From Marsupella aquatica (lineage: Eukaryota > Plantae > Marchantiophyta), in NCBI GenBank assembly GCA_973895155.1, contig OZ316893.1:21064955-21128954 (forward strand): DNA of 64,000 nucleotides, read 5' to 3'. The position numbers and the translations under genes are program-made. Below the pieces are notes generated by a model. The model saw only the letters and a list, made by a program, of their open reading frames with translations. It searched no databases and had not been told where the DNA came from. Shown here piece after piece: positions 2,070-39,620 of this stretch. Positions within the stretch are counted from its first letter, which is position 1, and every line of letters begins with the position of its first letter.

Positions 2070-3127
2070 TCCTTGACTTGACAATTTTTCTGTTTTGACA
2101 TATTTTTCTCATCTTAACATCTTTTTATCTCCTCAACTACTTTTTATCATATTGACATGTTTTTTCTCTCCTTGACATCTTTACTTCACCTCAATGTTCT
2201 TTTCAATCTCACACTGACATCTTTTTCTCACCTTGACATCTTTCTTCTCCTCAACATCTTTTATCATCTCAACATCATTTTCTCACCTTGATATATTTCT
2301 TCTTGACAGATTTTCTCTTTGGCATCTCTTACTCACCTCAACATCATATTCTCATTTTCACATTTGTTCTCTCATGGACATGATTTCCTCACCTTAATAT
2401 CATTTTCTCACCTTGACAGTTTTTCTCTCATTAATGTTTTTCTCACCTCAACTTCTTTTTCTCTTCGACATCTTTTTCTCACCTCAACGTCATTTTCTCA
2501 TCTCAATATCTTTTTATCTCCTCAATATTTTCTGGGCTAATTGTATATATATTGTGCCAAAATAATGAGACTTTTATACCCATAAACTACGACAATATTA
2601 CTATGGTTTTTCACCGCAATTGTCTTTCAAATTTGACTTTTATCTTCCCAAAGAAAGCCTTGGAAGCAACACAAAGAGGGGGAGAGGCAAGGAGAAAGGG
2701 GAATGGTGGGCACATGGATGGGAAAAGAGGGAGGGAGAGGCTTCATCTTGCCCCTTCTGGTCGCAGGAAACTAAGGGTGGAAAAAGTGACAAGTTTATTT
2801 TCTCACCTCAAAATCTGTTGCTCTACTTTACATCTTATCTCTCCTAGACATATGTTTCTCACTTGGACATCTTTCCTCTCTTTGACATCTTTTTCTCTCC
2901 TTGACTTCTTTTATCACCTCAACATCTTCTCGAACATCTTTTTTCGTCACCTTGACATTTTTCTCACCTTGACATCTTTTCTGATCCTTGACATCTTTTT
3001 GCTCCTAGACCTCGGTCCTAGACATCTTTTATCACCTTGGCATCTTTTCTCTCCTCGGCATCTTCTATCACCTCGACATCTTTTTCTCACCTTGACATCT
3101 TCGTGCAACGAACGGGCATTGGGCTAG
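2070..3127 (+). mobile_element. Non-autonomous Helitron-like 3' region with ~20-bp minisatellite
   Basis: Degenerate arrays of CTTGACATCTTTTTCTCAC (2090-2530 and 2800-3100). They end in TCGTGCAACGAACGGG (degenerate hairpin), CATTGGG, CTAG (3124-3127), then T, which is the canonical Helitron 3' signature. The 5' end was not located. Confidence 0.65.
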
Positions 3128-4053: not shown

Positions 4054-4253
4054 CAAGAAAAGACTTAACAGGACCCTCTAGCATGTTCTGGACTTATTAG
4101 AAGTCCAGCAAGATGCCATGAAGACCCTAATGAAGACTTAACAGGACCAGTCTGACTGTCCATCGATCTTGCACAGGTCTTGATGGCATCTTACTCACAA
4201 GGGTCTGGTTAAGTCCAGTAGATGCCAAAGGGGTCTTGTTAAATCTTTTCTTG
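4054..4253. mobile_element. Mutator-like MITE, copy 1
   Basis: TIRs CAAGAAAAGACTTAACAGGACC...GGTCTTGTTAAATCTTTTCTTG. 9-bp TSD TCTGCAAAT / TCTGCAAAA (1 mismatch). Confidence 0.8.
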
Positions 4254-5303: not shown

Positions 5304-7634
5304 CCTATCTACGTAGACTTTAAAAGAAGAGTGTAAGTGCAGTTCAACACAAGTCACAGGTACATATGACCAATCATATTGATTTCATATCTTGTCACAA
5401 AAGTGAATCACTTTGAATGACCAAACTTAGCCGATCGTCATTCATATTATGCAAATGACTTGAGTTCTTTGGCCCACTGAATAGTCACATCTTGTCAAGT
5501 TTATATGTACATGTGCAGTCAATGACCTAACTGATTTATCTAGTTACACTATTAAGCGAGTAAATAAGATGCTATTTCTTAGTTCTGTGGCCTGTGGGCC
5601 GGCAGACTTGCCTTATTTGGCTGCTGCCGGTGTTCTGTTTGTTCTGCGGTTAGTACTGGCACCTGCTGGCCTATGGCGGCTTGCTGTGTTGCTACATTTG
5701 GTTTCTTTTAGGAATGCTGTTTTGTTTAGTAATTGGGTGTTTGGTGGCCCTCTGACGGGTTTCTCTGTATTTGAAGGCCAATTGGCTTCCCCTCATCCAT
5801 GGGGTGTACCCCCAATGATCTATAATTGCTGTTAAAATTCTAGAGGAAGATGCAATGTCTTACATGTGTCACGCTTTGTAGTTGCCAAGCTGTAGTCAAC
5901 AGTAGTCAACTTGATCGAGTCACGAATGACACTCACCAAACCACTCTTTTTCTATTAGTATCAGAACATGTTGCTTTTTTTTGGGGATCTTGTCTCCTGG
6001 TTTGGCTTTTTTTGCCCTTGGGCACTGTGATATATAGCCCATGAGTGCAAACTCCAAACTGCACAAGACCCAAAACCCTACTTAGCCACAAACCAAAAAG
6101 CCCGCTAGAGCTACTGCAGGGGGTAAAGCATCCATTTAGTTTGAGCTTGAACCTGGAAATAACCTGGAACCTACTCCTTTGACTCTCAAATGTTTTCTTC
6201 CTGGTTATAATTATCTTTTGTATATCAGCGAACAGATGAAACAAACACTCATATTGTCTAACCTTGTTCCAAGCAAGTGAGCCTCGCTAGAAGGAGATGA
6301 GGGATAGGAGGGATGCCCCTCCTGGAACTGTACAAGTTTTTGTCTTTTGCATACATTGAAACTATCTTAATGTGAAAATTAAAATTTTTGATGTTCATTG
6401 CTAAAAGTAATGATCGAGGCCAATAACTTTTCTCTCAAAGTTGCAAAACAATTTAAGTACTACCAAGATTAGATTGGGCTTGTTATCTAGACATCATCAT
6501 TGTAGGGTTGACTTACGTCCTCACATAGCTTTTGAGTAGCCCTTAGAATAGCGTTGACATTGTGGAAGTTTGAATTCAAAGAGCACGAGGGTAGACTTAT
6601 AAAGTGCCTAGTGCCTAGTGCCTACATTTGGTGGGGACAAGAATAGAATCGAACTAATGGCTGGTCTGCTGCTCCGAAACTGTCCTAGTACCACGTAACC
6701 ACGAGCTCTCGCAGAAGAATGTCAACCAGCAATTTGCAAATCTTTCCGGATTCACAGAAAGGTTTGCTGTCCACGGAGCTGTCGATCATCCTCGACTCAA
6801 TTTTGTCCTCACCTTGTTCCTGAAAATTTGTCGAGCCTACCCACGCGACTAAGTCGAACTGGGCCGCGGGAATATTGGACAGTTCTGTACGTGGTGGTTT
6901 CTTCTTTAAATCTTGTATTTCGGTAATTTCATTCTGCGACTTCTTCCTCACTGCAGATTTTGTTCTCGCCGCCAGTTCAGTCGATCGTTTTGTGAGTATG
7001 TCTGGTTCTTCCTACCCATGAATTGAGTAGTATCAAAATTGAGTGAGAAAGAAGCTAAAGCTAGCTGACCCGCAGTTCAAGCATGGAATCACTTCTGCAC
7101 GAGCACGAGCACTTTGAGGGTCTGATCGAGGTCTACTCAGGTCGCGATTTAGACTTATAGGACAGATTCAACCATCTATATATATAAAAAAAAATTTGAT
7201 AAGTGAGAACATGAATTGAGACATGGGTAGACCCCGGGACGACCCCCAGAACTTGCATGGGCTGCGCTGGTGCATAGCCTTGAAGTTGACACGGATTAGC
7301 ATTGAGAGCGAGAGCAAGATTGATGTTGAAAAGTAGCAACGTGAGAGGCTTTCCGTGGAGCTGAAGATTTCTTAATTGGTCGACGACGAAGTACGAGCCA
7401 GCTTTCACTTCTTCTTCAAAATCCTGACCGAGCTGAGAGGCGTCTGGACAAGAAGCTGGAAATTGCAAGACCAATTCCAATTTGACTGCGTACGTACAGA
7501 GACAGGAAATATGTAGTGCTTGTTAACAGGAAGACCTCTCAAATCACCATTTAAGTTGTCCTGGAAGCTGCTTCTGCTTGACTGATAGCTGGGTTGAGAG
7601 CGCACGGTACGTCTGCAAATTTAGCCTAAAGGTC

Positions 7635-7804
7635 CAAGAAAAGACTTAATAGGACCCCTCTGGCATCTCCTGGACAGCCCAGCAAGATGCCATAAAGACT
7701 TAAGAAGACCCCTGTGACTGCCTATTTTGCCCAGGCCTATTTTACTCACAAGGGTCTGGTTAAGTCCAAGAGATGCCAGAGGGGTCCTGTTAAGTCTTTC
7801 CTTG
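7635..7804. mobile_element. Mutator-like MITE, copy 2
   Basis: ~41-bp TIRs (CAAGAAAAGACTTAATAGGACCCCTCTGGCATCTCCTGGAC, 3 mismatches). Perfect 9-bp TSD CTAAAGGTC at 7626-7634 and 7805-7813. Same family as 4054-4253. Confidence 0.9.
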
Positions 7805-15628: not shown

Positions 15629-15975
15629 CAAGCTCAATACTTGTGCGTTGCACAAAAGAAGTCGTGTCGGCCAAGATGTCGTTGAGAAAAAAGAGATGTC
15701 GTGTCAGCCAAGAGGTTGTGGAGAGAAAAAATGTCATGTTGGCCAAGAGGTGGTTGAGAGAAAAAACGTCATTGAGAAAAAAAGATGTCATGTTGGCCAA
15801 GAGGTCGTTGAAAAAATAGTTGTCATGTCGGCCAAGATGTCGTTGAAAAACAAATGTCGTGTCGGCAAAGACATCATTGAGAGAAAATATGTCGTGTCGG
15901 CCAAGACATCGTTGAGGGAAATTACCCATGCATTGTACAAAAGATGTTGTTAAGAAAAAAAATGTTCTGTCGCCC
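15629..15975 (-). mobile_element. Helitron-like 3' end with ~38-bp minisatellite
   Basis: Perfect hairpin TTGTGC-GTT-GCACAA at 15641-15655, then a minus-strand CTTG|T end at 15629. The minus strand reads GACTTCTTTTGTGCAACGCACAAGTATTGAGCTTGT, homologous to the 3094-3128 terminus. Repeats GTCGGCCAAGATGTCGTTGAGAAAAAA at 15661-15970. Confidence 0.6.
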
Positions 15976-16010
15976 AAAATATCATTAAAATAAGGATATC
16001 ATGGCGCCCT

Positions 16011-19000
16011 CTATCCGTTATCACCAACGGCACCTCTATCCATAATATTTTGTTCTTTGGCACCTGACTTAAACCCATACATTGCAAAATTTGCAAACTG
16101 CCAACTTTGAGTGATAGTGTTAAACCCAGGATCTAGCTCCCAAGTCTTAGTGGTCTGAAAGCAACGTTCATATCGAACATCATCATTTGCATCATGCTTA
16201 CCATGTTTAGGCCTCCACCATTGCACTTGGAACATAGGAGCATACCGCTTAGGAATGCTACTTAGGTGAATGCTCTTAGAAAACCTTGAAGAAACCCTTC
16301 ACTAAATTGCAAATCTAGTGAAGAAACCTCATGGTTTGGATCCACACCACCCAAAGCTCGAACTAACCAGAAACGCCCTTTGCCATTTTTTTGCTCCCAT
16401 TCATCCTCTGGACGTAAAAACACAAAGTGACCCTCTTGAATATCTTGTAGGGGAATCCAACGTGCAAGTTCTCGCTCTTCTCGTGCACCAACGAAGGGTG
16501 CAGCTTGACCTTCCATCTCTTCCATGTACTCATTTTGAAGGTCCATCATCTCTGAATTTTGAGTAGGTTCACTTGAAGGTTGAGAGGTCCCCAAAATCAC
16601 CTTGTAACCTGTGCCATGGTTAGTCTTTGGCCAGAAATCAGTTGTCAATGACAATTGTCTTTCTCCCTCCCCTTCTATTGTAAGTGCCTCAGAGAGTGCC
16701 ATAACAAGCCTCTCCCAATATTTCACCAAAGGAAATCTCTTGCGGTATGCTGCAGAGGTCTCATCCTTGCAACTTTTCCTCAAGAAATCAATGTAACGAT
16801 TAAGGAATGGGATGATTTCCTCGGCTTTCTTTTGTACCTCCCCCGATATAGGTTTTGCAAATGGTTGGCCCTCCGGTAAAATGAGCGTGTTTGTGATGAG
16901 ATCAGTTCTCCAAATTGACCTCCCTGTTGCTGGAAGCCAAGGTTGTTTGACATGTGCTTTATATTGATACACTGGCACATTATCCCTCATGGAGAATAGA
17001 AATGCCACTGGTTTTGAGTGACCTTCAATGTCTTTCACTTGGAAAGCCTTCAAATAGTGCTTGTAAGATGCAACCTCCTGAATCAATCGTGGTACGGGAT
17101 GGATGCTTTCACACTCCCAAACCTCAGCCATCAACGCAAGGAGGGTAGCAACCTCTTTGTACCTGACCTGTTTGGATACTTGAGAAAATAGTGCATCCAC
17201 ATCCTCATGGGTGTGGCCAACCATGAGGAATGACATTTGCAGAGTTTCAAACACCCCCTGCTAACAAGCTCGCTGCAAAATGCCATCACATATTGATTTT
17301 TATTATCTTTTCCTGAATTGTCCATCTGCAGTGTTAGGTGCCTTGGTAAGGGCTTGAAAGAGCTCGTAGTCTCAGGATCAACTCTAGAACCAACATCTGT
17401 TGTGCTGGTTTTTTGGCTCTCCTGACTGTCATCAAGGCCTTGAAACTTGAGAATTGAAACATTTTTGGGTTCCAAGTAACCCGCTTGAAATGCTTCAAAG
17501 TCCAAAAGAGACTGAAATATTGGCCTAGTTGCGTTCCAATTGAAAGCTTCAAGCATGTCTCCCGTTTTGTCTCCAGTGTAATCCTCCAAATCTTGAAGGC
17601 ATTTGGCCAAAGATGTCACAGTGAAGTCTGCATCTCCAGGCCAAAGGCCAGTCAAACTAAAGTGTGCATACACTCCTGGATCCCTTCCATGGGTTAACAT
17701 CCCAGTAAGGGCAATGGGCAGAGGTTGACCACTACCAGAGAGAGATTTTGGAGTGGGGACCAATCTGGGGATCCAAGTCTTGGCTTGGTCCATCTTATCA
17801 TGAATAATGCAAAGATAGTTTTGAGGATCCTTCTTTGCAAGAACCCTATGAGCATAGTAAACATATCTCCTTGACATTTGTTCACGAAGATGTCGTGCTC
17901 TTTTCTCTTCAATCTCTGCACGCTCGTTTTTTCTCTTCTCCCGCATCAATTGACCTTTGAACTCAGTGCAAAATGTGCACTTGGCAAATGCACTGCCCTT
18001 GTGAAAGTCAAAATTATAAAAAGAATTTTTCCAGATGTTGTACATGGTAACTTCAGTAACCTTAGCATAGCCGTCCAATTCCATCTTTGCAAATACCTCT
18101 TGAAAAATCTCCTTCTTAGTGAAACATGATGGGAGTCGATATTCGACAATATCGGTGCCGTTGGACCCACCATAGGGAAGATGTGGCATTGGTTCTCCAT
18201 TTTGGATTAAAATGGACTCCAACAATGCACGAGCATGCAAGGTGCTTGATCGTGTCTTATGTTGCCCTTGATTTCCATGGAAACCAATTGTGCACCCAGC
18301 TTCGTACTGATTTTTGTAATCATAATACTTTGCCGTACTAAACCCATGCATTTTTATGAACGCATCCTTACAAACCACACGTCCCTTTAGAACAAAAAAT
18401 CCTTTTCTCTTGACTTGGTCTTCTCTACACCCAAAAAGATTGAAGATATGACTTGTTTTGTTGTCACTTGACATTCCATGGAATTCCCTCCTCATTGCCT
18501 CCAAGTCCTCTCTTGGCATGTTCAAGCAACACTTTAACCTGCAACAACCTTCTCTTTGGATGGAATCAATGGACTCCTCGGTGATTTTCAAAAGCGCCCT
18601 TGATTGCAAATGTTTTTTTTTCTCCTCCAGATCCACTTTGGTCCTTCTAATGAAATTATAAGGTCTTTTTGGAGGTTTCCCATCACCATCCAAATCCGGG
18701 TCGCTCTCATTTCGACCCGATTCTATCCACACATGTGAACCTTTCTCAAGGATATCCCCGAGAAACATTTGAGATGAAATCAACAACAAAGATTTGATTT
18801 CCCACCTCACCAAACCTGGAGTACCAGCACGGATATTTGGAAATAATGCGGGATCGTTGATATTCACAACAGCTACACCCACATGCTCTGGACCAAGAAG
18901 TTCATCATCAACAGCACCTGCTTCAAAAGGAACTGTGATAACCCCTATCGCAACCTTACGACAACGAGAAACATCATACAAGTCAACTTCCTCTGCCATC

Positions 19001-19689
19001 CAGTTGGAACGCATTGTAAAATCTTTCAATGGAAGATCCTTAAACAGGTTTGCACCAACAAACATGCCAGAACCTCGAATAGAGCCTTTTCTTGAAACAT
19101 CAGCAACATCCCACATTACCCAAGTCTGCATTGCCTCTTGCACTGTGTCAGCTCCAGGATGCGGATACGGTAATTTTCTATTTCCCTGAACAAGCTCTGA
19201 TATTTGTATACTGACATGGCCAACACCGAGTCGTTCACTATGACAAGTGTCCATTGGATTGGTATTGAAGACAACTCCTTTTGATACAAGTTGATCTAAA
19301 ATGAACATCTCAACCTCCTCTCCTTCAGCAAGGTTGCCTCCTTTACCACCAACATCCATTTCGGAACATCCTTCATCCCCGTCCACTGGAGTAGGAACAC
19401 CATCCACAACGGTTCTTTTCGGCAATGTTGAAGACCTCAAATATGCCAAGGAAGAATCCCAGATCACACACGAGTCAACTGCATCACCTAGGCTCAATGA
19501 TGTTTTGGATGGAAATGGTAGTGGACAAGATGTTTCAAGACACCTCTCGATAAGGACCCCAATTCGATTTTTCCCAAGACAAATATTGTGTATAGTGTCT
19601 TTGGGATCAACCTTTTGGATGGTCCCAATTGCCACTTCAAAACCATCAATTATCAATGAAACTTCATCCCCTCGCATAAATTTACTCAT
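16011..19689 (-). CDS. DDD transposase, Sola1-like/DUF7869-type (~1200 aa), interrupted by a 1-nt frameshift at ~17254
   Basis: ORFs 17131-19689 and 16262-17254 plus a last exon 16247-16011 (intron 16327-16248, phase 0). Motifs: GCCRLKCC, VCKDAF, FAKCTFC..H, IIHDKMDQ (D1), LQMDNSGKDNKN (D2), FLMVGHTHEDVDALFS (D3). Three N-terminal repeats of a Tnp1/DUF8039-like domain. Confidence 0.85.
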
Positions 19690-19867
19690 GGTAGCGAAAG
19701 GATCTCTGCATCCAAAAACATTTAAAAATTGTTCAGCTGATGTGCATACTGATAAGCACTACTCTAGATATTACAATTTTAGATCTAAACATTTGAATTC
19801 TATTTAAAGGAAAAAAATATTTGGGAGTTTATGTGTATTGGCTTTACACAACAGGATTCTAAGGTCA

Positions 19868-20270
19868 GGGACGCTCTTGGAGCGAGGCAAGGTTGCAACG
19901 CTCTAGGGGGGAGGCGATTGAGGGTCGCTCTAGGGGCGAGGCGATGGAGGGTCGCTCTAGGGGCGAGGCGATGGAGGGTCGCTCTAGAGGCGAGGCGATG
20001 GAGGGTCGCTCTAGAGGCGAGGCAATGGAGGGACGCTCTAGGGGCGAGGTGAATGAGGGTCGCTCTAGGGGCGAGGCAATGGAGAGACGCTCTAGGGGCA
20101 AGGTGAATGAGGGTCACTCTAGGGGCTAGGTGATGGAGGGTCGCTCTAGGGGCGAGGCGGTTGAGGGACGCTCTGATGGCGAGGCAATGGAGAGCGGATG
20201 CCCTTGGAGAAAAGAAAGGGCAGGATGCTCCTGATGAAAGGTAAGTGTATGACGCTCTTGGAGCGAGGCA
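19868..20270. repeat. 27-bp tandem array (~12 clear units plus degenerate ones), each with an imperfect palindrome
   Basis: Unit GGTCGCTCTAGGGGCGAGGCGATGGAG, period 27 (19925, 19952, 19979...). Lies upstream of the transposase ATG, probably in a 5'-UTR intron (minus-strand TGCAG acceptor at 19710-19706). Confidence 0.95.
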
Positions 20271-21325
20271 AGGGGAGAGCAAGAAAAGACGAGCACAATC
20301 CTGGAGAAGCAAGAATTGTGAAGGAAAAGAGAAAATATGGAAATGAATAAATCAGGGGAATGATTAAGCTGAATTAGACCATTGAAGTGTGTAGACGTGT
20401 GGGTAGACGAGTGTGTCGTTAGGAACCCTACATTATCTACTACTTAGTTAGGTCCATATATTAAGATAAAGCTAGGGCCAAATATTTGGTGGATATCATA
20501 GAGAAGAAATTAAGAGAATGGTAGATGAAGTAATACCTCTCTTAAGGACTATAGAAGACGTGTCGCCAACCAAGGACACCAAAACTAATGCAATGTACTT
20601 GAAACAGGACTTTCCTTGCACAAACTCTTGTAACCATAAATGTCCAAGTCAGTCGAATCAATCACCGAACAGAAGCAAGATAGACAAGGGCCGAAGGGCG
20701 AGACCGAGAGTGAGCAATGACCAGAAACGCACGCGCCATACAAAAGAGAGAAATGATTGGAACTGTAGAGCTTTATACCATTTGTGAGCAAGATTTAGCC
20801 AAGTTTGTCCTGAAGGGGTTCACAACATCGAGAGGCCAAAAGTCTGATTACTCTGATTGGCATTCTGTGGACACCCGTACGACCGTGCATCATTTTTCAA
20901 AATCTATGGATACCCGTACAGCTAGGTCATTATGAGGGTTGCGAGTTCACAGGCGCGTGGAAGGGAGCAAGTGGCTGGGTTGCGTAAGGTCGCATACAAT
21001 CGGCCGTGGCTGGGGTCACAGGTAGGATTGGCCGTGGCAGTGAGGGTATAGGAAGGCAAAAGGCAAAGACATTACCTCATTTGCCTCATTGTCTTCTTGC
21101 ATCCATCTCCTCCTTCATTGTCTTCTTGCCCGGCTGCCCTGGTTTCCCTCCTCCCTCTTGCCTCGCTCATAGTAGATTTTCTTGCCTCGCTCTGTTGATT
21201 TTGCCTTGCTCATAGTAGATTTTTTTCCTTGCTCTGTAGCCTCGCTCCGTGGTGTGGTCTAGCTATAGGCGTTCTTGTATACTAGGCTGCCACGTGTCAT
21301 CTAAACGTTTGTGAGGCATTTTTCA

Positions 21326-24300
21326 ATGGCCACTTCCTCTAGTTCTGATGATTCTACTAGCACTTCTAGTTCTGGGCAGTCCCTGAACTTTGATTCTAGT
21401 AAAATCTTTGAGTATGATTCTCAAGACACTTTACTAAAGATGTCGGTGGAATCCGCTTTGGCCGCCTCAAAGGGATTTCATATCACAGTTCCACGTAAGT
21501 ATGATTCAACAATTGATGCAAGTTAGTCTTTGAAAGGTCGCTCTTAGAGCGACCCTATCTTGCCTAAGATTTGTCGTTGTTATTGGTTGGACGTTGATTT
21601 AAGTTTTCCTAGGGTCGCTCCAGGAGCGACCCAACTTTGTTGTTGGTTGGACGTTGATTTAAGTTTTCCTAGGGTCGCTCCAGGAGCGACCCAACTTTGT
21701 TGTGGGTTGGACCTTGATTTAAGTTTTCCTAGGGTCGCTCCAGGAGCGACCCAACTTTGTTGTCGGTTGGACCTTGATTTAAGTTTTCCTAGGGTCACTC
21801 CAGGAGCGACCCAAATTTGTTGTCGGTTGGACCTTGATTTAAGTTTTCCTAGGGTCGCTCCAGGAGCGACCCAAATTTGTTGTTGGTTGGACCTTGATTT
21901 AAGTTTTCCTAGGGTCGCTCCAGGAGCGACCCAACCCACATGTTTGTTGATGCAGACCTTGTCTCCAGCTCGCTCTAGGGTCGAGGCAACACAGAAGATC
22001 TCTTGCTTTAATGTTTGTCGTTTCAATTTGTTTTGCCAGGAGAACAACTTGGATCCCCAGAGTTAAATATTATGGCCGAGGATGACAAGGACTTTATTTT
22101 CCCTGGACAAGATAAGGCAGGATTTTCATGGGCACTTGAAGTAGGGATCATGGAGAATGACTTGTCGATGATTTGTATCAAGGCAATCACTGATGAGACA
22201 ATGAACGACAAGAAGATAGTTGCGTTGGGCCCTGTGGTCCTTGTAAATTGCAGTGATAACCGCAATGTTACAATCATTATTGAATCCAGAGAAAGATCTC
22301 AGTGGATGAGACTTTACTTGTCAATCAAGATGTACTCGTCAATTATCAACGTGGAGTGGATAGCACGCTCGGAGGCTAGTATTTGTTCAATGGGATTTCT
22401 TCCAGATGGGTTCACTGCAGAGGATGTTCTTGAGAGGCATGGAAGATTCAAATTGAGTGGGGTTGATGTTGTCTTTGGATTCCTCTCTGTGAAGCGGTAC
22501 ATGCATGATCATCCGGACATTATAGATCTTCCTAACACATGGGTTGTCCAGAGGATGATTGAAACAACACGCTTTTCATATGAGCAAGCAATTGATAAGA
22601 GTTTTATTTTCTCTGATGAGTTTGACGAAGATGCTTGCATGAAGTGGATTTCAACTCAAAAGAAGAAGGAAGAAAAGCATCGAGGTAAGGGGAAGATGAA
22701 GATGAAGGCCAAAGAAATGACGTTGGCTGAAACACAGAAGAAGAGAAAACAAAGAGAGCCAAGGAGTGAAGGAAGTACTAGAGGAAAAAAGGCGGCGTTG
22801 AAGAAGAAAGATAAGGACTCCGACAAGAAGCCCAAGAAGAAGGCCAAGATTGGAAAATCAAAGCCCGTGTCAGCGTCAAAAGCAAGGTTGGTCTTGGATC
22901 CGGAGGATGATACATGCCCAACAGATGCACCAGAGGAACGAGATGTATTGGAGGGGCAGAAAGCTTTGCGGAACATCGAGCAATACTACACTTTTGGAAT
23001 CAGGGAGGTTTTTGAAATCCCGGTTAAAAGTATTCTTCCGCCTACTGCAGTTTTTGTGTATCGGATGTTCAACCAAGCTCATGCCTTAGAGATAGCAAAA
23101 TCAATGATGAAAAACCCTGGCCAGGAACCACATGTTGCAGATTTGATTCCATTTCTAGAGCGCACTAAGCAGTTGTTACATTTTGACAATACCGCACGCG
23201 ATCGGAAGCAATTTTTGTTTGGTGTTAAGAAGCAAGAGATACAATTTCTTGCAATCAGTGGGCAACATTCCGCAAAGGCTGCACAATGGATTCAAGGGTG
23301 GGCAAACAAGGATGCAAAGCTAACTGATCTTGCTAGCAAACTCCAATATCGGAAAGCGAGGATCTTATCAGACCTCACTCCAAGGGCAATTTTGGTCGAG
23401 CACTCGAGCCTTTCAAATGCAGTAAATCAGACCATGCAGTTTAAGTCTTGTTTTCTAGAGACAGTTGTTCATGCGAGAAGGCAATTTGATGAATGTGGGA
23501 AACCACCGCGTCCAGGAATTGGAACAAACCAAAGTAAAGACAACCAGAAATACCAGGTAAACATTTTCATTAGTTGGAACTGTAGTTTAATTTTGCCTCG
23601 CTCTTAGAGCGACCCAAATGAAATTGAACGATGAATACAATGATTGCCCCAACCATTTTCATATGGCTTTGTCATTTTCTTCGCCTCGCTCTAGGGGCGA
23701 GGCAGAGAAGTTGAAGTTTCTAAGTTTAAACATCTAACATGTTTTTTGGTGGATGAATGTAAATGCAGGATTGGTTTGCCCTCGCAAAGATAACAATGGG
23801 AAAGTCGAGCTTGAAAGCCATTTTTTGGTTGCTCTTTGCTGAGGATAAGCTTTTCCATTTATGGCAAACTGTTTGTTGGGATTGGTTGGTAGGGAAGCTC
23901 CCTGGCGGGGCAGGAGAGTATGGTGGGCCGCGGCCACTAAAGCTGGTCACGCCAACTCTTTTTAGATGTTTTGAAGGGGAGATCAGTTCTAAGGATATCA
24001 TTGATATATTGACCGCGGTTTATGAGAAGAAAGCACTTCTCAAGAAAGATGCCTCCAACAAGATGGATCTGGTGTCAATGCCAGATATGGCTCATACCAT
24101 CAAGGTAATGACTAAATTGAAGCAAGTCATTGTTGAGTACTTTGTTGAGAAGCACAAGGAGAAGTTTCCCGGGGGGACATCGTGGGCTTCGGTGGTCAAC
24201 ATCATGCCGGCCTTGGGATCTCAACTTGAGCTGACAAAATTGCGAAGAGCAGCTGGGGAGGTCTACCTTAGCAGTTTATTAAGGAAGAACATTGTGAAGG

Positions 24301-27300
24301 AGGCTTTCCCTCAAAGTCTAATGGTGAGATTAGACGGGTTGTACTGCAAACAATTTGGTGGAGTTGGGCGCACACGAACAGAGCCTTTCTTGACGTTCTT
24401 CAGTGAGAATCTAATGAAGACAACCACGCCAGAGTTATCGGAAGAGGCGACGCCAATGTGTCCACTTGCAATTGTTGATTTTAGTAGGGCACGACAACAT
24501 GAATGGACAGATTCGGAAATTTTTGTATTGCTCCAATATATTGTGGAGTTGCCAAGGAATACAACCATTGTAGTTGTCATGACTACTCATCCAGGGCCAC
24601 TTCCAGCCAACATCTTAAGTGCCCTAAGGAAATTAGGACATGAAAAGCATTTGCCCATCCATGTTGAATACGGGAGTTATGATCGGGAAGATCGCCCAAA
24701 TCCGCAGGGCTTAATTTTTACAGGAGCGATTGAGCAGGTCATTTTTGCTGGAATTACAGGTGAAGACAATTTTGATTGGAATCGATTGTTTAAGCCAGAG
24801 TTCAATTCAAAATTTAGTCTTCACCCCGATGTTGACTGTGATTTCAATATTGAAGTGAAGGCTGACAAGCAAGAGAAAAGCAAGGGAAAAGAGAATGAGA
24901 CAGAGGAGCAGTCTCCCGCATTTGATATGGCAGATTTATTGCGGCAAGCTCCAATGTTTGAGATGGTCGGAAGTCGAGGAGGATTTGTCAATCCGCATGC
25001 CAAGCCCCGACACATGCTCAAAAATATTATTGAATGTTTTTCCGGTGAGGGGGAGACTGTCCTCGATTTTTTTTCAGGAGGGCAGGTTTTGAAGGTGGCC
25101 TTGTTGGCATACCGAGATTGTTTTGTCTATTCAGACACTTTGCAAGAACACCATTTCACCCAAGCATATGCAAGGGTTTTGTGCAACAGGATTCCCTCCC
25201 TTATGAAAGAGCGGATGGGAGTACATGGTCCTAGTAGAGCTCATCTAAGTGTTCTTTGCGGGCCTATGGACAACCCCCAACCGGGCCCTCAACGAGTTGA
25301 CCTTGAGGATGGTGAGTTGCAGCATGATGACGGAGGTTCAAGTCCTATGGTAGAGGAGGATTTTGGCGGAAATTGGGATGCTCGAGCAACAGAAATGGTT
25401 GGCATTACTACCTACGGTGTTGAAGGGCTACCTCAACTCGACATAGTGATGTCGGGTCGCCCTGAGAGCGACCCTCCATCAAATCCTCTCAACCCTGAAG
25501 TATCAAAATTGCATCCCGAGAGACCACAGGTATCGTGCACATTGGATGCAGGTTGGCAGAATATTGGGGCCACTACACCCACCACGGACCTACAAGTTGG
25601 TATTGCAGAAGCGATTGAAGACAACCTTCCACTTGGAGAGACAACAAATGTTGAAGCTGAAGAGGCAGGTGCTTCAACTTGTTCCGAGTCTCCTCAATTT
25701 TGTTCGTCAGGGAATAAATTGGTCTTCACAAGGATGTCAAGCGGAAGCCCCATAATATTACGCTTGTCTCAAAAGTCTGGATCTGAGATAGGTAGAACAG
25801 GATATATGAAGACAGTCCGTCATGCAACTCATTTCATTTGGAGAAATGGACCTAAAGTTGGATTGAAAGAAACGTTGGAGGATGCGCCTAAGTTAATGGT
25901 CAAACCTGATTACATAATAGACAAATTGAGATTGAGTCCAGTGTTTGCGCCGCCAACGTTGGTGGAGCAGCTTCCTGTTGGCGTCAATTCTGATATCCAA
26001 AGTGATCTAGGTGATAAAATGATAGATGAATATGGGTCATTTAGTAGTGGAGGTTAATATTATGGTTTCGTTCTTCTATTTTTCACAATAATCTAAAATA
26101 TTATGTTTGGAAATCATATATGGACAGACCAAAGTTTTGTCATAGCATCTCTTCCATCGAAGGATATTATTGGTCTACCTTCAGCAAGCGGTACCCTGGT
26201 CCAAGACAAAGCATTTGAGCAAGGTACTTCTACATTGATATATCAAAATGCTTTGACATTCAAAAATGATATGTTTGTTTTCCCCATTAGGTCGGGTCGA
26301 TCCAGGTTTGACCCTAAGTTCTTCTTTTATATCTTTTAGATATAATTTTGATTCATTTGGATCTTTGCAGATTTCACTCCTAAATTGCACTCTGATATAA
26401 GAAGAAAACTCTTGATTTTGGACCTGAACAAAATTTGTTGGGATTGCGTCAAAACAAAAAGCTCGGGACCGTTAAGATCTACAACAACTGTGCAGGGTGT
26501 GCATTGGGGGAGACGGGGTGGATTCAATTTCATGTACGTGGAAAGGCCAGGGTTGCACCAATTTTTGGAGGTGGCTTTCAAAGGTTTTGATGTCGCATTG
26601 TGGACTTGTGCGGGGAGGCCAAGAACTAATGAAATGATGAATTTGATTTTCAAAGAAGAGGAGCGGAGGCAATTTAAATTTGTTTTCACACAAGAAGATG
26701 CTTTTGATAGTGGCATAAAAAGACCGGACGTAGCAGATGGGAAAGCAAATATTATGTTGAAGGATTTGCATGTGGTGTGGAGTCGTTTTGGAGACAAGTA
26801 TGATGATACAAACACTCTACTTATTGATGACTCTCCAGTGAAGGCTTTTGCAAATCCACAGTATAGTGGTTTGTTCCCAACTCCCTTCTCACACATTGCC
26901 GAGAGTGACACTTTTCTACCAGAGATACTTTGGCCATTCCTTAGAAAATTGTGGAAGGCTTATGACATCCGACAATATATATCTGTCAACAATCCACTTT
27001 GGTCATTTGTTAATATAAATGATGACCGTGAAAGTAATGCTGCAATCTATGATTTACTTTCCCATAAGTGGGGAAGTAAGATTTGGCGTTCCAAGATTGA
27101 GTATACCATCTTGGATGTCACTGGAGATGAGATATGTTGGGAAGTGAGGGATATGGTACAATCCTACCCTACATTTGAGAACCTGACCGAAGATGATATG
27201 AAAGATGTGGTCAACAACTGTTTGGGCGAGTCTTATGCAGGTCCCTTCAGAGAAAATCCTCGCCGATTTGTCTGGGAAGTTCTAAAGACTAGGGATCTCA

Positions 27301-27443
27301 CCTCTAAGTTTAAAAATCGTTATCCCAAAGACACTTGCACTTGTGACAGACTATATGACCCAAATGGAGAGCGACTCACTTGTTCAAATCAGTCATGTAG
27401 ACATATTCATGGAGGCATAGAATTTGAAATTTTAGATGATTAA
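21326..27443 (+). CDS. ~1712-aa multidomain protein: ParB/Srx-like + beta-class amino-DNA-methyltransferase-like + FCP1/NIF-type HAD phosphatase + C-terminal Cys/His cluster
   Basis: Exons 21326-21494, 22040-23556, 23769-26052, 26128-26223 and 26371-27443. All four introns are GT-AG with matching phases (1,0,1,1); total 5139 nt, no internal stop. Motifs: Lys-rich NLS-like tract; FEIPVKSI..YR..FLAISGQHS (ParB-like); NPHAKP..IECFSGEGETVLDFFSGG (MTase motifs X/I); KLLILDLN..RPGL..FL..ALWT..LKDL..LLIDDSP (FCP1-like). Confidence 0.8.
21577..21934. repeat. 60-bp tandem array x6 in intron 1, each unit with the palindrome GGGTCGCTC-CAG-GAGCGACCC
   Basis: Exact 60-bp period with near-identical units. 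One unit has a CpG>CpA change (~21797). Confidence 0.95.
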
Positions 27444-27944
27444 TCATTATGTTTCTGTACATTGTAGGACACAAGATTGGAGTCATGCAATCATTTTTCT
27501 ATTTCACAGGTCATAGAACTACTTTGGACTTTACACTAGCTTGACCATTGGAGTAGGATCGACATTATGGCTAGCCAACCTTGAATATATGTTATGATAA
27601 ATGAGATGATTAATCTCACTTTGAATTTAATCATGAGTTTTTGACCAAATGATACATGTTTGTCACTTATCTATTTAATTTCAAATACAATTAATATTAA
27701 TAATTTCTGTATTATGATTAATTGATTAAAATCAAATTTGGAGTGCAAAAGTGTAATTTTAAACCAAAAAGAGTGTATATTTAGTCTTGAAAAATTGTTT
27801 ATTTGGAGCAAAATTAATGGACTTTTTAGAGACAAGAATGTAAATTTGAGGATCACAATCTGGACTTTTAAATTTCCAGTTTTAATGAATAGTGTGATCT
27901 AAGTGCCGTAACCTTTGAGTCACAAGACTAAGAGCAATCCTTAA

Positions 27945-28170
27945 CAGAGATGAGAAAAAGATGTCAATATGAGGAAAAAATGTTGAGGGTGAAGAAAAAT
28001 GTTGTGGTGAGATAAAGATGACCAGGTGAGAAAAATATGGCAAAATGAGATAAATATAATATATATGTTGAGATGAAAAAAGATCTCAAGGTGAATAAAA
28101 TATGTCAAGATGAACAAAGATCTTGAAATGAAAAGATATTAATATGAAAAAGAGATGTCAAGATGAGAAA
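27945..28170 (-). repeat. ~20-bp minisatellite of the Helitron-associated family
   Basis: GAGAAAAAGATGTCAA-type units, the reverse complement of the 2090-3100 arrays. Confidence 0.7.
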
Positions 28171-31100
28171 ATATTTTATCTATATTTTATTTATATTTGA
28201 AATTATTTCAAAATAATTAGAATTTTTAATTTATGAATAAATTTAATAAAAAATTTATTAATTTTTTCAATTGTGGCAGGTATGGGAAGATTAAAGGGTA
28301 GCTTGGGCAGGAACTTATTTTTAGAAGGGGTGTGTGGATAGATCTTAAAGTGTGGGAAAAATTATGTTTTAATAAACATTCAAAATTGATTGTCACTTTT
28401 TTTAGTTTATAAAGGGACCTGATCAGGATTATACTGGTACATAGTAAAGGGAGGTCTCCTTGATACTTTTGCATTGCTAGAGACTCTCCTTATTTTCTTT
28501 GTACTATTAAATTAGTTTTTGCTTGGAAACATTGTTTTCCATTTTCATTCACAAGAGAAATCACTCTTTCATGTTTTTTATTTTTGGGATATTGCAAATT
28601 TGAATGACTACTATAATAAAAAAAGTAACATTTTATTATAGCTTTTGATATGGTCTTTGTAATCTAACCTATTTTTAATAAACCTATTTTAATTAAATTA
28701 TTATCATTATTATGTATTTTGAAATATTGTAATACTTGCAATAATATATAATATCATATATATTATGTACTTTTGTATTTCATGTGTATACCTCCTTGAT
28801 ACTCATGCATGTACATTCATTCTCTTGTTTTGTGTGCCCCATTGGTTCTAGCATTGGCTCCTTTGTGTCTCCCATTTTATTCCCAGTTTGTTTGGAATGT
28901 ATTTATTATTTTTTGGTGCACACTAAATTTAATATAACCTTTATTCCTTCTCTTTGACATGATTAATGTGTTTTGGACACTGCAAATTTGAATGACAAGC
29001 ACTTCATAAAAAGGCGCAACCTTGTATTATAGTTTAGGATAACAACAGCAACCCTGCCAAGATGACCAGACTTATGCACCCACAAGCTATGATAAACAAT
29101 CATATGGTTTTTTAATAATTGCTTCCAAAATTTGATATTTGCAATGCCAAGGAAAGAATGCGAAGCAACAGGGAGGGGGAGACCCAACAAGATGGGTGAT
29201 ACTTGGGAGCTGAACAAGACAGGCAATATATAAGGGCCTGTATAAGGGAGGGGCAAGGATGGAGGAGAGGCACATGCATGGGAAAACATAGACTGAGAGG
29301 AACACTTGGTCCTGTCCCCTCCCCTCCCCTCCCGCATATGGATGAGGAAATGGGAACAACCTCCTTTATGCAACAATAACTTTTATGCAACCACAGGTAT
29401 TGAGCTACTTATACAATATCTCTTCTTGCAACAACAAAGTGGGATGGATGTGTCTATTCATTTGGGTCTGATATGCAATTGGATGGCTGTGTCTATTCAT
29501 TCAGGTCCGATATAAAATCAATCTGCAATAGGGGCCACCCTGCTTCACAATGGAGAGAGTCTGAGAGGCACGCATTCACTAGATTGAAAATGACGGTAAA
29601 ATGCTTATTAACAATTGAAAACCACAACTGCAGGGAGGTTCTTTTAAGCGTATCTTTGTATTGCAAGTTCTAATGTGACAATATATGGTTCCGTAAGTCA
29701 TTACATATCATGATCAAATTTATTGTTTTGCTTAAATCCCTTGTTATTCAGCAGACCGTATATTACCCGGATGCTATCAAACGAACCCTCTCTGACAAAC
29801 AGTTATGGTGCCCACCAAGTTTGGAAGTGTCCAAGTCCCTTCTGTGTCGGCCCAGCTCCTAGATATGGAACTTCGACGGCTGGAGTTGTTTCCGTTCTCT
29901 AGTGAACTTTCCATGAGGGTCCGTAATAACACCTGATTGGGAAACATTGCCAATGATCTGCTCAAACATCTCATTTCTGGAGGCACTCAGCAGCTGTCAC
30001 GACGAGGATGTGATAATTACAAAACCGTTTCCACTATAATGAGCAATGTGTGAATTGCATCTTATGGTGTCATAATGACTGTATGTTGTCTAATTAAGAT
30101 GAAAGTACTGTACGAGAGGGTATATCACACAAAATGTTAGTCATTTTTTCTGTTATACCACATCGAAGTGCAGGCCTTCGTCATCTTATCATGAAGGTTC
30201 TCTTTGTGAGTTGTTTTCACCATTGCAACCTCAGAAGCTTCATTTCAAATGTGCTGTTGTTGAACCGTGCTCTCTCCACGTAACCCTCCATTAAATGTTG
30301 GAGAATTTCATTCATTGAGACAAGTGTCCGTTTATATTATTATAAGCATCTTCCTCAATCAGATCTCTGACAAAAGACTCCTGGGTTGATAAAATATTAA
30401 GGAATATTTCCTCTCTTTACATTGTCCCCTTCTCTCATATTTTCTTTATTTGGAAATATGATCACACTATTTTTTACTATCCTACTCGGACATATGAAGA
30501 ATTTTGGGATCCCACCACCACCATTTCTCTGTTTTTCATCAACAAATTTTGACAAGTAGGTAAACTTGATCTCAAGAGTCTATATCTGCAAGCTTAAACC
30601 TAATATGCGCCCTTGGCAAAGAGAAAGAGTGGCTTGCAAGAAATAAGGAGAAAATTGTCTGGACCCTTGAAGGAGTAAGGGCACTGATTTTTGCATTTGA
30701 ATAAGCATAAACCCTTCAACTTCATGCCACGGGTCCAGCTGTAATCATTTCCAGACCCAGCATGATCACCATGCCTAGCAAAAAGAAACACTGTTTGGGA
30801 TGTTCAACCCTCTCTTGAATATCTTGGTAGGGGTCCAGATACGGTCTCGGTCCTGCTATGCCTAGAAAGCAATAGTGGTGAACAACGGTTTCTGATCATA
30901 TCTTGTCACCCAGATGTGTGACAGAATGTGTTAGTAGTTATCAAATGCACAAGAGAGTAAGGTTTGAGAAGGAATGTGTTGAATACCCTTGATATGGTGG
31001 GTACCCCATGCTAAAGACACCAATGACGCTCGGACTTGCTCTCGGGCTACCCTAATATTTTACACTAGAGCATACATGCACAAAGTAAGCCATGATTGCA

Positions 31101-33175: not shown

Positions 33176-35869
33176 ATGGCTCACATGACTACTACAATGG
33201 CGGGGAAGTTGTTGGTGGTAATGGTGGTCTTGAGCCTGGCGACGAGATCAGTGAATGGCCAGCTCAGGAAGGATTACTATGCTCAGAGCTGCCCCAACGT
33301 GGAGGCACTCGCTAGGTCGGCTTTCCTCAACCGAGTTAGCTTCTTCAACATCATCTCGTTGCCTGCCAACATTCTCCGACTCGCCTTCCACGACTGTGCT
33401 GTCGATGTATGTTCTCTCTAATTCGTATCACCATTGGCTTTCACAGCTTAGTTTGTTATTGGGTATGATATTAGTGTCCTAGTGACGTTTAGTCTCGAGG
33501 ATGCATCTGTACAAATCTGTCAGCTGATCTTTGTTGATGGGCGCACCATCTATGCTTCTGTTATGCTTCTGACCATACCGCGGGGCTTTCCGTTAACAAC
33601 GAACCTGGGCACTTTCCTACGCTAACAGCAGGGTGGCTAGGTTCAATACCCTCACATCTGTGTCACATGCTTCACGGACCAACTCCCTTACTGCTACGTT
33701 GGGCCATATATTGAGAATGACCGTTTGGCTGAGCTGGCCATTCAATGCCCGTAAACTTCGCGATTCTTAGCCTTCGGCTATCATGCCAGTCCGATATGAA
33801 GCACCCCTCCTCGCGCTTAATTAAGTTGACGTTGAATACTATCGTAGTGAGGGTATCAACTTTAGACATCCATTCATCCTTGGTAGCACCATTATTATCT
33901 TCGCGTGAAGTCCTACGGACTAGCACAAATCACAATCATGTGTTCACAGTATTGTGGTTGCTTCTGCTATCGTTGAAGGGAAGATTGGAGGGGGTTGTGT
34001 TGTACAAGACCCTGTGAATTCGGAATACTTCCGTACTTTACGAGTACCTGACTTACGAAGTCGTATCACCATATTTATACTGGCCTACGGGCAATAAGAC
34101 TAAACCCCCTTCAACAGAATTGTCCGAGGTCGAATATGAGGATCTAGCTTGCTTGACCTTGTTGCATGGAGCAGTACTGCGTCCTCTAGATGGAATATGA
34201 CAGTGTGTCGGGAACGTCGTCATGTTCCGACTTGATTGTATTGAAGTGGGGACTAGTGCAGTGATTATTCTATTGAATGACCGAAATGAATGGTCAATTA
34301 TGGTCGCGAAACTCACGCCACTGTCAGGGTCGAATTAATGATTCTTGCATGGTGATTGAAACGGCATCTCGTACACTTTCATTGCATATTGCTGTATTCT
34401 GCCGGTCATGACCTTAAGAGCGTTTCAGGTTAGAAGATCAATTGTGTGGACTCTTTCTTCATCTCACGAGCGTCCTCGTTTGTGGATTGCAGGGCTGTGA
34501 CGGTTCAGTTCTACTCGATAGCTCTCCGGATGGCTTGATAAAAGACGAGAAGCTCTCCAACAATAACATTGGTATTGGCAACATTCCCGTGATTACATAC
34601 ATGAAACAGCAGATCGATGCGCAATGTAAAGACTCTTCTGGAGCTCCGGTCGTGTCATGTGCTGACGTCGTTGCCATGGCTGGTCGGGAGGCCTTCAACT
34701 TTGTAAGTCAACGCCAGTTTCGTTCACTCGTGTTCAAATTTTCGTCATTTAATGCAGCTTTCGTGTATCTAATAACACATCTGGAACTGTGATGTTGGCG
34801 AGAATGATCGCTTCCATTAGTCTTCAGGAATTGCATGAGATTGACCACTAATAGTATATTTGGATCAAATGAACTACCGTAGACAGTATTTCTCAGCTCT
34901 TGGTTCCAAGGGATTCCCAGTGGATGTAAGGAAATGTTGCTTCTTACTCGTAATGTCCATGGTGCTATCGCTGATAGCATGTGAGATCTGCTTTCTGATG
35001 TCACTGTCCCTGTCCATGTATATGCGATCAATGTCTCAGGCCAAAGGTGTTGGAAATCTAGGCTCTCAAATCATTCCCATTCCCTTGGGCCGAAGAGATG
35101 GAACTCAGGCTCAGACCTCCCATGCCGACGCACAGCTACTAGGGCCTGAAACTTCTGTAGACGAATTGCTCTCAAATTTCGGTCGGATTGGTCTGACGAC
35201 AGAGCAGTCTGTCGCGCTTATTGGTAAGCCCGCCAATTTTCTGCTTTGCCAGCGTGAACGGAATAGATCTGAATAAGAACCGTTATCAGTGGCAAATTTC
35301 AGTGTTGATGTCGTTACCAGCCGTTACTGCTGATGCAAGCTTCTTTTGGATGGAAATGATGTCTTCGTACACGGCTCGAAATTGCATTGGTAGCTGAATC
35401 TGCTGCGGGAATCATTGTAGCTATATTTATCGTGCTTACAATCACTTTCATACTACTGTTCGCAGGATCTCATACGATTGGAATTGCCCACTGCGTAAAC
35501 ATTGTGAATCGTCTCTACCCGAATGCGGACGCGACTTTGTCGCAGCCCACGCAGGTGCCCCTACGTTTGAAGCTGAGCGCCCTTTGCCCTCAGGGTATAT
35601 ACAGCTCCGGCACGGTGGTGAACAACGATCAGACGAACACTATCTTTGACAACCAGTACTTTGCCAACGTTGTGACGGGCCAAGGCCTCATGACTGTTGA
35701 TGATAATCTTCGTCTGGATCCCCGAACCGCTGGATACGTCCGAAAATTCTCACTAAACCAGCCCTATTTCTACCAGAAATTTGCCGAAGCATACACTGTG
35801 CTCACCTCGTGGAGAGTCCTCACGGGCTCAGAAGGAGAGATTCGTAACGACTGTACCAAAGTGAACTAA
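33176..35869 (+). CDS. Class III secretory peroxidase
   Basis: Exons 33176 (or 33197)-33406, 34493-34702, 35040-35223 and 35466-35869, the canonical 3-intron layout. Signal peptide, then QL..YY..SCP, LRLAFHDC (distal His), GCDGSVLL, VSCAD, GRRDG, GSHTIG (proximal His), FDNQYF and GEIR..C..N. Confidence 0.95.
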
Positions 35870-39199: not shown

Positions 39200-39620
39200 G
39201 GGAGATAAAAGAAATCAAGGTGAGAAAAGATGTTGAGGAGAAAAAGAAAAGTGAGAAAAGATGTTAGGGTGAAGTAAAGATGTTGAGATGAAATAAAGAT
39301 GTCTGACAGGTGAACAAAAAATGGCAAGATGAGATAAAAGATGTCAAGCTGAGAAAGAGATGGTGGGCGAGATGATATAGAGATAAAATATTGAGCTGAG
39401 AAAAAATGTTGAGGAGAGAAAATGATGTTGAGGACTGCAAAAGAAGTCGAGGGAGAAAAAATATGGAGGGGACAAAAGAAGTCAAGCTGAGAAAAAGATG
39501 CCGAGTTGATTAAAGGATGTCAAGGCAAGAAAACAATGTTGAGGTTAGGAAAAGAGGAGAAAGATCTCAAGGCGAGAAAAAGATGGCAAGATGAGCAAAA
39601 TATGTCAAGGCAAGGCAAGA
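39200..39620 (-). repeat. ~20-bp minisatellite of the Helitron-associated family
   Basis: GAGAAAAAGATGTCAAG/GTTGAG units, same family as 2090-3100 and 27945-28170. Confidence 0.7.

Follow-up and report, generated by a model that had tools for sequence, protein, structure and literature searches.

A probable Sola1-type transposon in land-plant DNA, with a ParB- and methyltransferase-like accessory gene and arrays of a shared palindrome

A head-to-head gene pair

The stretch of contig OZ316893.1 analysed here, 64 kb in length and referred to below as the window, carries at 15991..27944 two large genes lying head-to-head, with start codons at 19689 on the minus strand and 21326 on the plus strand, as an earlier note on this DNA had described. 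The minus strand encodes a transposase of the Sola type, recognised by its DUF7869 domain, while the plus strand holds an open, spliced accessory gene facing it. A 21-bp palindrome recurs across both genes. Considered together, the shared motif, the layout and published precedent make it quite probable that the interval is one element, and this copy is likely to be a single damaged cut-and-paste transposon of the Sola1 type.

A Pfam scan of open reading frames (ORFs) identifies the window as land-plant DNA through its LEA_2, peroxidase, Rubisco-LSMT and Kelch domains. Two liverworts, Calypogeia fissa and Riccia sorocarpa, supply the named relatives of the transposase and of the accessory gene alike, and on these sequence grounds a bryophyte host is likely.

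A damaged transposase

The transposase gene is read from the following parts.

17254..19689, minus strand: transposase 5' part, DUF7869 (E 5e-15), 41% identity to the intact 1250-residue relative P0032
17254..17258, minus strand: frameshift in a five-base homopolymer inside the catalytic core (frame -2 to frame -1)
16328..17260, minus strand: transposase middle part, DUF7869 (E 1e-21), with the GHTHEDVD motif at 17195-17218
16248..16327, minus strand: 80-nt GT-AG interval without counterpart in relatives, an intron or an insertion scar
15991..16247, minus strand: transposase 3' part; residues 1160-1227 of the 1250 of P0032 align to 16235-16032

The 5' part encodes three N-terminal repeats, Cys clusters and the first and second catalytic-type Asp motifs (HDKMD at 17788-17802 and LQMDN at 17317-17331). 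DUF7869 scores above the Pfam cut-off in both halves of the protein, which lie in two consecutive frames, and all three acidic motifs are present. The earlier identification of a Sola-like transposase is thus supported. DUF7869 is taken here as the Sola1-type transposase domain, and the label Sola1, which depends on it, is provisional. A profile of the transposase found no match in the PDB.

The gene is not intact. The frameshift falls between the LQMDN and GHTHEDVD motifs, and homology stays colinear across the frame change in all five aligned relatives; it could be a mutation or, alternatively, an assembly error. Relatives of 1101-1250 residues are single ORFs, and three of them (P0032, P0035 and P0036) run uninterrupted across the position of the 80-nt interval. 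Homology stops at about 16030, some 25 residues before the C-terminus, the last 25 or so residues being out of frame or missing. Beyond the 3' part, the DNA abuts a host low-complexity array at 15991, and the left end of the element is likely to be truncated. This copy of the transposase is probably non-functional because of the frameshift, the extra 80-nt interval and the homology that ends before the C-terminus. For mobility the element would depend on transposase from a different copy, provided that its ends have survived.

The three N-terminal repeats (18700-19689, minus strand) are similar to one another and can be aligned to Calypogeia transposases, two of which, P0034 and P0192, match PF03017 (TNP1/En-Spm) above cut-off; a Pfam scan of the window's own repeats gave no match. 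The combination of a Sola-type transposase with TNP1/En-Spm-like repeats of the CACTA kind in the Calypogeia relatives suggests an exchange of domains between superfamilies.

The accessory gene and its ParB-like half

The earlier note had described the accessory gene as an intact cargo ORF of five exons; the five-exon model considered here has its exons at 21326-21494, 22040-23556, 23769-26052, 26146-26223 and 26371-27443. The parts of the gene are as follows.

21326..21494, plus strand: exon 1, aligning with Calypogeia protein P0026
22040..23556, plus strand: exon 2, with a PH-like domain, a Lys-rich linker and a ParB/Srx-fold domain (structure model, Foldseek, VIA)
23769..26057, plus strand: exon 3, with a helical region, a methyltransferase fold, a variable linker and a C-terminal block
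26146..26223, plus strand: possible exon 4, with fitting phases
26371..27443, plus strand: NIF/HAD phosphatase exon, domain at about 26403-26981, DLN motif at 26421-26429

As a reading frame the model holds, with GT-AG intron ends and 1706 codons free of internal stops, but the join from exon 3 to exons 4 and 5 is unproven. The joins between exons 1 and 2 and between exons 2 and 3 have support from annotated proteins of Calypogeia. P0026 can be aligned to cargo residues 2-562, and the join between exons 2 and 3 is spanned by both P0019 and P0021; the single ORF P0201 supports this second join as well.

Exon 2 encodes a PH-like domain (about 22072-22521), for which the predicted model reaches a middling VIA Z of up to 6.0, followed by a ParB/Srx domain (about 22981-23445) with the sequence SGQHS at 23257-23271. 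The top 13 Foldseek matches are all Noc, ParB, PadC or Srx proteins (probability 0.95-1.0, E 0.009-0.05, none reaching E 0.001), and VIA gave Z 8.4 to both KorB and PadC, with a root-mean-square deviation (rmsd) of 2.8 over 94 aligned residues for KorB. The ParB domain claimed earlier is therefore upheld as a fold predicted by Foldseek and VIA on a structure model. Sequence searches of the PDB, phages, Pfam and NCBIfam did not find ParB; fold searches alone detected it. The Pfam scan of ORFs in the window revealed no ParA gene.

By language-model features, the ParB half (22909-23556, plus strand) resembles fungal clusters that include DUF3723-bearing ones, with scores of 0.94-0.96. DUF3723 is an accessory gene of Starship elements. 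No paper in the literature searched contained both DUF3723 and ParB, and DUF3723 may, to judge from this resemblance, be a ParB-type transposon accessory protein.

A methyltransferase fold without its catalytic motif

Exon 3 comprises a helical region (23769-24356, residues 1-196 of the exon in the predicted model), the methyltransferase fold (24375-25220) and a C-terminal block (25638-26048), and ends in an in-frame stop at 26055-26057, with a possible splice donor at 26053. The family is large: for the profile of this exon there are 182 clusters at 50% identity, 150 of them among the matches listed. The C-terminal block on the plus strand, about 135 residues ending in EYGSF, is conserved across the close subfamily and has no Pfam match.

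In Pfam, exon 3 matches N6_N4_Mtase at E 4e-5, below cut-off. The predicted model (predicted local distance difference test score 89) gave a Foldseek match to CcrM at E 3e-8, and VIA returned Z 17.1 (rmsd 3.9, 218 aligned), with Z 14-17 to eleven beta-class structures. The N6/N4 methyltransferase named in the earlier note can accordingly be kept as a predicted beta-class amino-methyltransferase fold, permuted in the model so that motif IV lies ahead of motif I, as in enzymes of that class. The motif for binding S-adenosylmethionine (SAM), motif I, is DFFSGG at 25065-25082; it aligns to DFFAGSG of M.RsrI, being one residue shorter, and is exact in 31 of 54 rows.

The catalytic position is another matter. 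It is assigned to DFSR at 24477-24488 because of the strand order of the model and the structural ranges. In these ranges, residue 203 of the model is matched to residue 3 of CcrM, whose catalytic Asp is residue 31 (PMC10406627), to be compared with Asp237 here. In an alignment of 42 rows, which includes a few near-duplicates, xPP(Y/F/W) occurs in none at this position. The Asp is kept in 39 of the 42 and is followed by variable residues, most commonly FSR, with 22 different tetrapeptides across the 42 rows. The wider pattern (D/N/S/H)PP(Y/F/W/H) occurs neither in the window's own product nor in any of the 151 family proteins examined, a set that contains many fragments, while DPPY is present in all six phage methyltransferases used as controls. 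Given this absence throughout the family, the domain is probably a pseudo-enzyme, catalytically dead. Within the motif, the first Pro serves in CcrM and N4CMT to place the target amine, and the Tyr to stack on the base (PMC10406627).

It could be argued instead, in line with the earlier note and with what is proposed for Ectocarpus, that the methyltransferase is active by way of an unconventional catalytic loop and places N4-methylcytosine or N6-methyladenine on the DNA of the element itself. Such an activity would fit the complete predicted fold (Z 17) and the conservation of motif I and of the first Asp of the catalytic position across the family. Two marks can also exclude each other, as Marchantia DN4MT1 spares cytosines that carry 5-methylcytosine (bioRxiv 10.1101/2021.02.12.428880). 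However, the Pro-Pro-aromatic residues occur in no family member, the residues after the Asp are highly variable, and the Pro and Tyr have catalytic roles in CcrM and N4CMT (PMC10406627), so that an active enzyme appears rather improbable. Marking of DNA by the accessory protein, as first envisaged, is doubtful, the motif being missing in every family member examined, and the comparison drawn earlier with bdelloid N4CMT and Marchantia DN4MT1 applies to the fold and not to the activity.

The linked phosphatase

The last exon matches NIF in Pfam at E 4e-16, above cut-off, and HAD-IIID at E 9e-10, below it; the closest solved structure is UBLCP1 (E 6e-8). NIF phosphatases have a DxD nucleophile motif. 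Here the first Asp and a DDSP motif are retained and the second Asp is replaced by Asn, as it is by Glu in Riccia P0178.

Whether this domain belongs to the same protein is a separate issue. All 15 relatives whose sequence extends to the end of exon 3 (11 of them non-redundant) stop 2-9 residues after EYGS(L)F, and the window's own frame likewise stops at 26057. At this position the relatives share no donor-derived residue, in contrast to a near-invariant Val at the donor of intron 2, and no relative could be aligned to exon 4. On the other side, methyltransferase-like and NIF coding sequences are joined in three Riccia gene models, which are automatic and from a distant subfamily; the two sequences therefore adjoin at other loci. 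A separate phosphatase gene, or a minor isoform, is somewhat favoured. The earlier description of a ParB-methyltransferase-phosphatase gene is thus supported as to all three folds or domains and doubtful as to the phosphatase fusion.

Palindromic sites

The palindrome has the consensus G(G/C)(G/C)TCGCTC-N3-GAGCGA(C/G)(C/G)C, with one CpG in each half-site. Its occurrences, for which no strand is given, are listed below.

19868..20269: array 1, 13 sites in a 27-bp tandem unit, 180-580 nt upstream of the transposase ATG
21535..21987: array 2, in intron 1, 8 sites in a 60-bp tandem unit
23595..23703: two sites in intron 2
25454..25474: one site in the variable linker of exon 3
18698..18718: weak site inside the transposase coding region (score 16.6, within simulated maxima)
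26294..26314: weak site just upstream of the phosphatase exon (score 14.6, within simulated maxima)

Matches to TCGCYYNNNRRGCGA with at most one mismatch number 20 in the 64-kb window, and all 20 lie inside the interval, at 19871-25471, against a chance expectation of 0.74 on average and 3 at most (100 shuffles). A scan with a 21-bp matrix, trained on 11 sites and read at a score of at least 10, gave 27 matches, 26 of them inside the interval: 13 upstream of the transposase, 8 in intron 1, 2 in intron 2, 1 in exon 3 and the two weak ones. The one outside, at 7225-7245, scores 13.6, which is within the range of chance, and no transposase or accessory-gene homology was found around it.

The number of sites overstates their independence. 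Two tandem arrays (27 bp x 10.9 and 60 bp x 6.0), together with their immediate margins, account for 21 of the 26 inside sites. The independent contexts therefore number only 4-6, and tandem amplification explains most of the count. The arrays are 85-96% uniform. The palindrome nevertheless recurs in at least four unrelated contexts across both genes. The earlier statement that it is repeated more than 20 times and only within this interval is correct for 26 of 27 matrix sites, with the reservations that most of these belong to two arrays and that there is one weak site outside. That one palindrome is present ahead of the transposase gene as well as in the accessory gene (introns 1 and 2, exon 3), with no close match in the rest of the 64 kb, supports the view that the interval is one element.

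The main rival to binding by the accessory protein is that the palindromes are transposase sites, bound by the three N-terminal TNP1/En-Spm-like repeats, while the accessory protein acts otherwise. TnpA binds the subterminal repeats of En/Spm. The PF03017 matches in two Calypogeia transposases, to which the window's repeats align, and the position of array 1 just upstream of the transposase gene would both fit such binding. Nevertheless, the sites are concentrated centrally in the interval and in introns of the accessory gene. The outermost 2.7 kb of the interval at the left and 1.6 kb at the right contain no site, although the true ends may lie elsewhere. Moreover, ParB genes adjoin inverted-repeat arrays in elements with a different transposase (bioRxiv 10.1101/2025.02.11.637652). 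Binding by the transposase repeats is, on balance, unlikely.

Copies in other liverworts

In the relatives the accessory gene is not single-copy. Both genes are multi-copy and dispersed in Calypogeia and Riccia, and the closest named relatives of both come from Calypogeia, those from Riccia being distant. Four Calypogeia transposase proteins on two contigs are 95-96% identical and five from Riccia, on several contigs, 89-97%; this identity and dispersal, as read from the sequences, fit a recently mobile family, as expected. The Calypogeia accessory copies lie on four different large contigs and form one clade (99/99).

A proposed shielding role

The family-wide loss of the catalytic motif shifts the prediction from marking of DNA to shielding or reading. 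The best explanation of the whole, held tentatively and at slightly less than even chances, is that the accessory protein binds the element's 21-bp palindromes and shields its promoters without methylating DNA.

In the first step, it is the accessory protein, and not the transposase or a host factor, that would bind the palindromes, as a dimer; this has perhaps a little better than an even chance of being correct. The sites so recognised cluster around the two divergent 5' regions, and the protein is predicted to occupy them or to spread from them. The methyltransferase fold would retain binding of SAM or of DNA while transferring no methyl group, a step that can be regarded as probable. The two back-to-back promoters would thereby be shielded from host silencing. 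How the element would be kept transcribable is more speculative: occlusion of the CpG-bearing half-sites, spreading by the ParB domain and action of the linked phosphatase on nearby chromatin or RNA polymerase II (Pol II) proteins may all contribute, though this part is possible rather than probable.

Several observations weigh against this interpretation, or against the unity of the element on which it depends. The coding region of the transposase is depleted of CpG, its observed/expected ratio of 0.42 being lower than that of the flanks (0.60-0.68). Such depletion does not point to long-term protection of this copy. ParB proteins have the nucleotide-binding motif GxxR. Its position is occupied by SGQHS in 23 of 25 rows and the terminal Arg is present in none, and because this Arg is lacking, clamping with cytidine triphosphate (CTP) by the accessory ParB domain is uncertain. 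No helix-turn-helix or other DNA-binding fold was matched in residues 1-200 of exon 3, a region that the fold search barely probed. Finally, a profile-profile alignment to phage methyltransferases anchored motif I only and did not place DFSR on DPPY.

The same is true of the ends and the linkage of the two genes. The ends proposed in the earlier note, 15991 and 27944, both coincide with the start of a common host low-complexity array, and no terminal inverted repeat (TIR) or target-site duplication (TSD) was found there, the best inverted score being 10 as compared with 7-11 in 30 shuffles. An inverted match of 7 bp between these ends was not accepted as a TIR. The proposed junctions, ATAA and TTAA, agree in 3 of 4 bases; the left one lies within the last codons of the transposase and is not counted as a TSD. 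The flanking arrays were also rejected as giant TIRs, there being five such arrays in the window, in both orientations. A second locus with both genes was not obtained from metagenomes, prokaryotic genomes, viral contigs or liverwort accessions: the linked pair was found in 0 of 437 and 0 of 36 prokaryotic genomes and in 0 of 55 and 0 of 26 viral contigs, and 66 pattern matches in a metagenome scan reduced to one locus, L001, which was discarded as a bacterial chance match. Among 4 transposase and 5 accessory Calypogeia accessions, and among 11 transposase and 7 accessory Riccia locus tags, no adjacent pair was seen; since these samples are partial, adjacency of accessions is uninformative, neither showing nor refuting linkage.

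The failure to find ends or another linked locus would also fit two adjacent or nested mobile units, namely the remnant of a Sola-type transposase and a cassette with the accessory gene from another element, and accessory genes of red algae do move among transposon superfamilies (bioRxiv 10.1101/2025.02.11.637652). Against such a composite stand the one palindrome on both sides of the shared upstream region and the prior publication of the same pairing and opposite-strand layout (PMC12477816). Both genes also have their closest named relatives in Calypogeia, which host phylogeny would explain equally well. Two units are accordingly an improbable reading of the interval. A further alternative is that the host has domesticated the accessory gene here while the transposase decays, with 1706 open codons standing next to a broken transposase. 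This is very unlikely, given that copies of the family are numerous and dispersed, many of its gene models being partial, and that the arrays are still 85-96% uniform, as fits a young copy.

Surroundings of the element

The following features lie outside the interval.

2098-2533 and 2798-3101, minus strand: A/G-rich arrays
4054-4253 and 7635-7804: two related self-inverted elements of 170-200 bp, resembling miniature inverted-repeat transposable elements
15654-15990, 27945-28174 and 39201-39611, plus strand: A/G-rich arrays
34418-35866, plus strand: peroxidase exons
42547-43302, plus strand: LEA_2 gene
51885-52166, plus strand: exon for the substrate-binding domain of Rubisco-LSMT
53561-54268, minus strand: Kelch-repeat ORF

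The five A/G-rich arrays are degenerate and interrelated, with periods of 18-19 or 35-37 bp, and two of them flank the element. Of 90 flanking ORFs of at least 85 residues, 79 were scanned, the remainder being repeat-derived, in alternative frames or previously scanned. The scan matched host-gene domains only, and a larger or nested element was rejected.

Comparison with known systems

The earlier note had proposed a new system and had named an already catalogued architecture as grounds for withdrawing it. The architecture has largely been described, in Sola1-1_Ec32 of Ectocarpus, where a Sola1 transposase is accompanied by an opposite-strand gene for a 1104-residue ParB-like and N4C/N6A methyltransferase protein, proposed to bind and modify its own sequence; its best blastp match is a Physcomitrella Sola1 (PMC12477816). 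The likeness to the present element lies in the ParB-like and N4C/N6A methyltransferase domains joined in one protein, encoded opposite the transposase. Sola1-1_Ec32 differs in being 21.5 kb long with 282-bp TIRs and a 4-bp TSD (PMC12477816), neither of which was found at the ends proposed here, and in its host, which is a brown alga and not a land plant. The available description, through which alone the two elements are compared, mentions no phosphatase, PH-like domain or palindrome array and does not say whether the catalytic motif is intact.

The idea of a VANDAL-like logic is not new either: a Bostrychia preprint makes the argument from ParB, inverted-repeat arrays and VANDAL (bioRxiv 10.1101/2025.02.11.637652). 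In the Plavaka elements with PAG1-3 of Bostrychia and other red algae, a ParB-like accessory protein likewise adjoins tandem inverted-repeat arrays, and the cassette includes a PF01555 methylase domain. The transposase there is instead of the EnSpm/Plavaka type, and ParB is fused to a 2-oxoglutarate (2OG) oxygenase and the methylase to SET, in separate genes.

ParB and methyltransferase folds are not known from VANC. The resemblance to VANC and VANDAL of Arabidopsis is one of logic only, namely an element-encoded accessory protein with element-specific tandem target motifs; anti-silencing has been shown experimentally for VANC (PMC5735166), whereas here it is predicted from sequence.

At the level of single domains, the fold and motif order are those of CcrM, M.RsrI, M.MboIIA, bdelloid N4CMT and Marchantia DN4MT1, but these beta-class enzymes carry DPPY or SPPY and the accessory family has neither. 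Bacterial ParB, Noc and KorB, with their palindromic parS, NBS or OB sites, also combine a ParB/Srx fold with repeated palindromes in one element; they differ in having GxxR where SGQHS is found here, and in the helix-turn-helix, which was not matched in the barely probed N-terminal region of exon 3. ParB-linked methyltransferases are reported from chlorophytes and phages, and inactive methyltransferase domains from DIRS1 elements (PMC4738411).

Sola1 is listed in Physcomitrella (PMC9033089), and the available text of three further sources (PMC5751038, PMC4455052 and bioRxiv 2021.09.26.461848) holds no defining Sola features. The literature searches, for which most subscription papers and Repbase were beyond reach, returned no report of the element in land plants. 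Relative to the literature searched, three things are new: the occurrence in a lineage of land plants, the loss of the catalytic motif throughout the family and the linkage to a phosphatase. The boldest reading would be a large, unnoticed Sola1 family in non-seed land plants with a second, independently evolved anti-silencing system, in which a ParB-derived clamp sits on element-specific palindromes, a dead bacterial-type methyltransferase covers CpG sites and a phosphatase of the C-terminal-domain (CTD) type is linked; it is unlikely to hold. If it did, plants would have a second anti-silencing system and a possible sequence-specific tool for the epigenome. The locus offers a concrete candidate site, protein and family in the liverworts, the group of the model plant Marchantia, and the proposal is therefore testable. 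On the boldest reading, the ParB-methylase accessory proteins of algae, too, might be readers or shields instead of writers.

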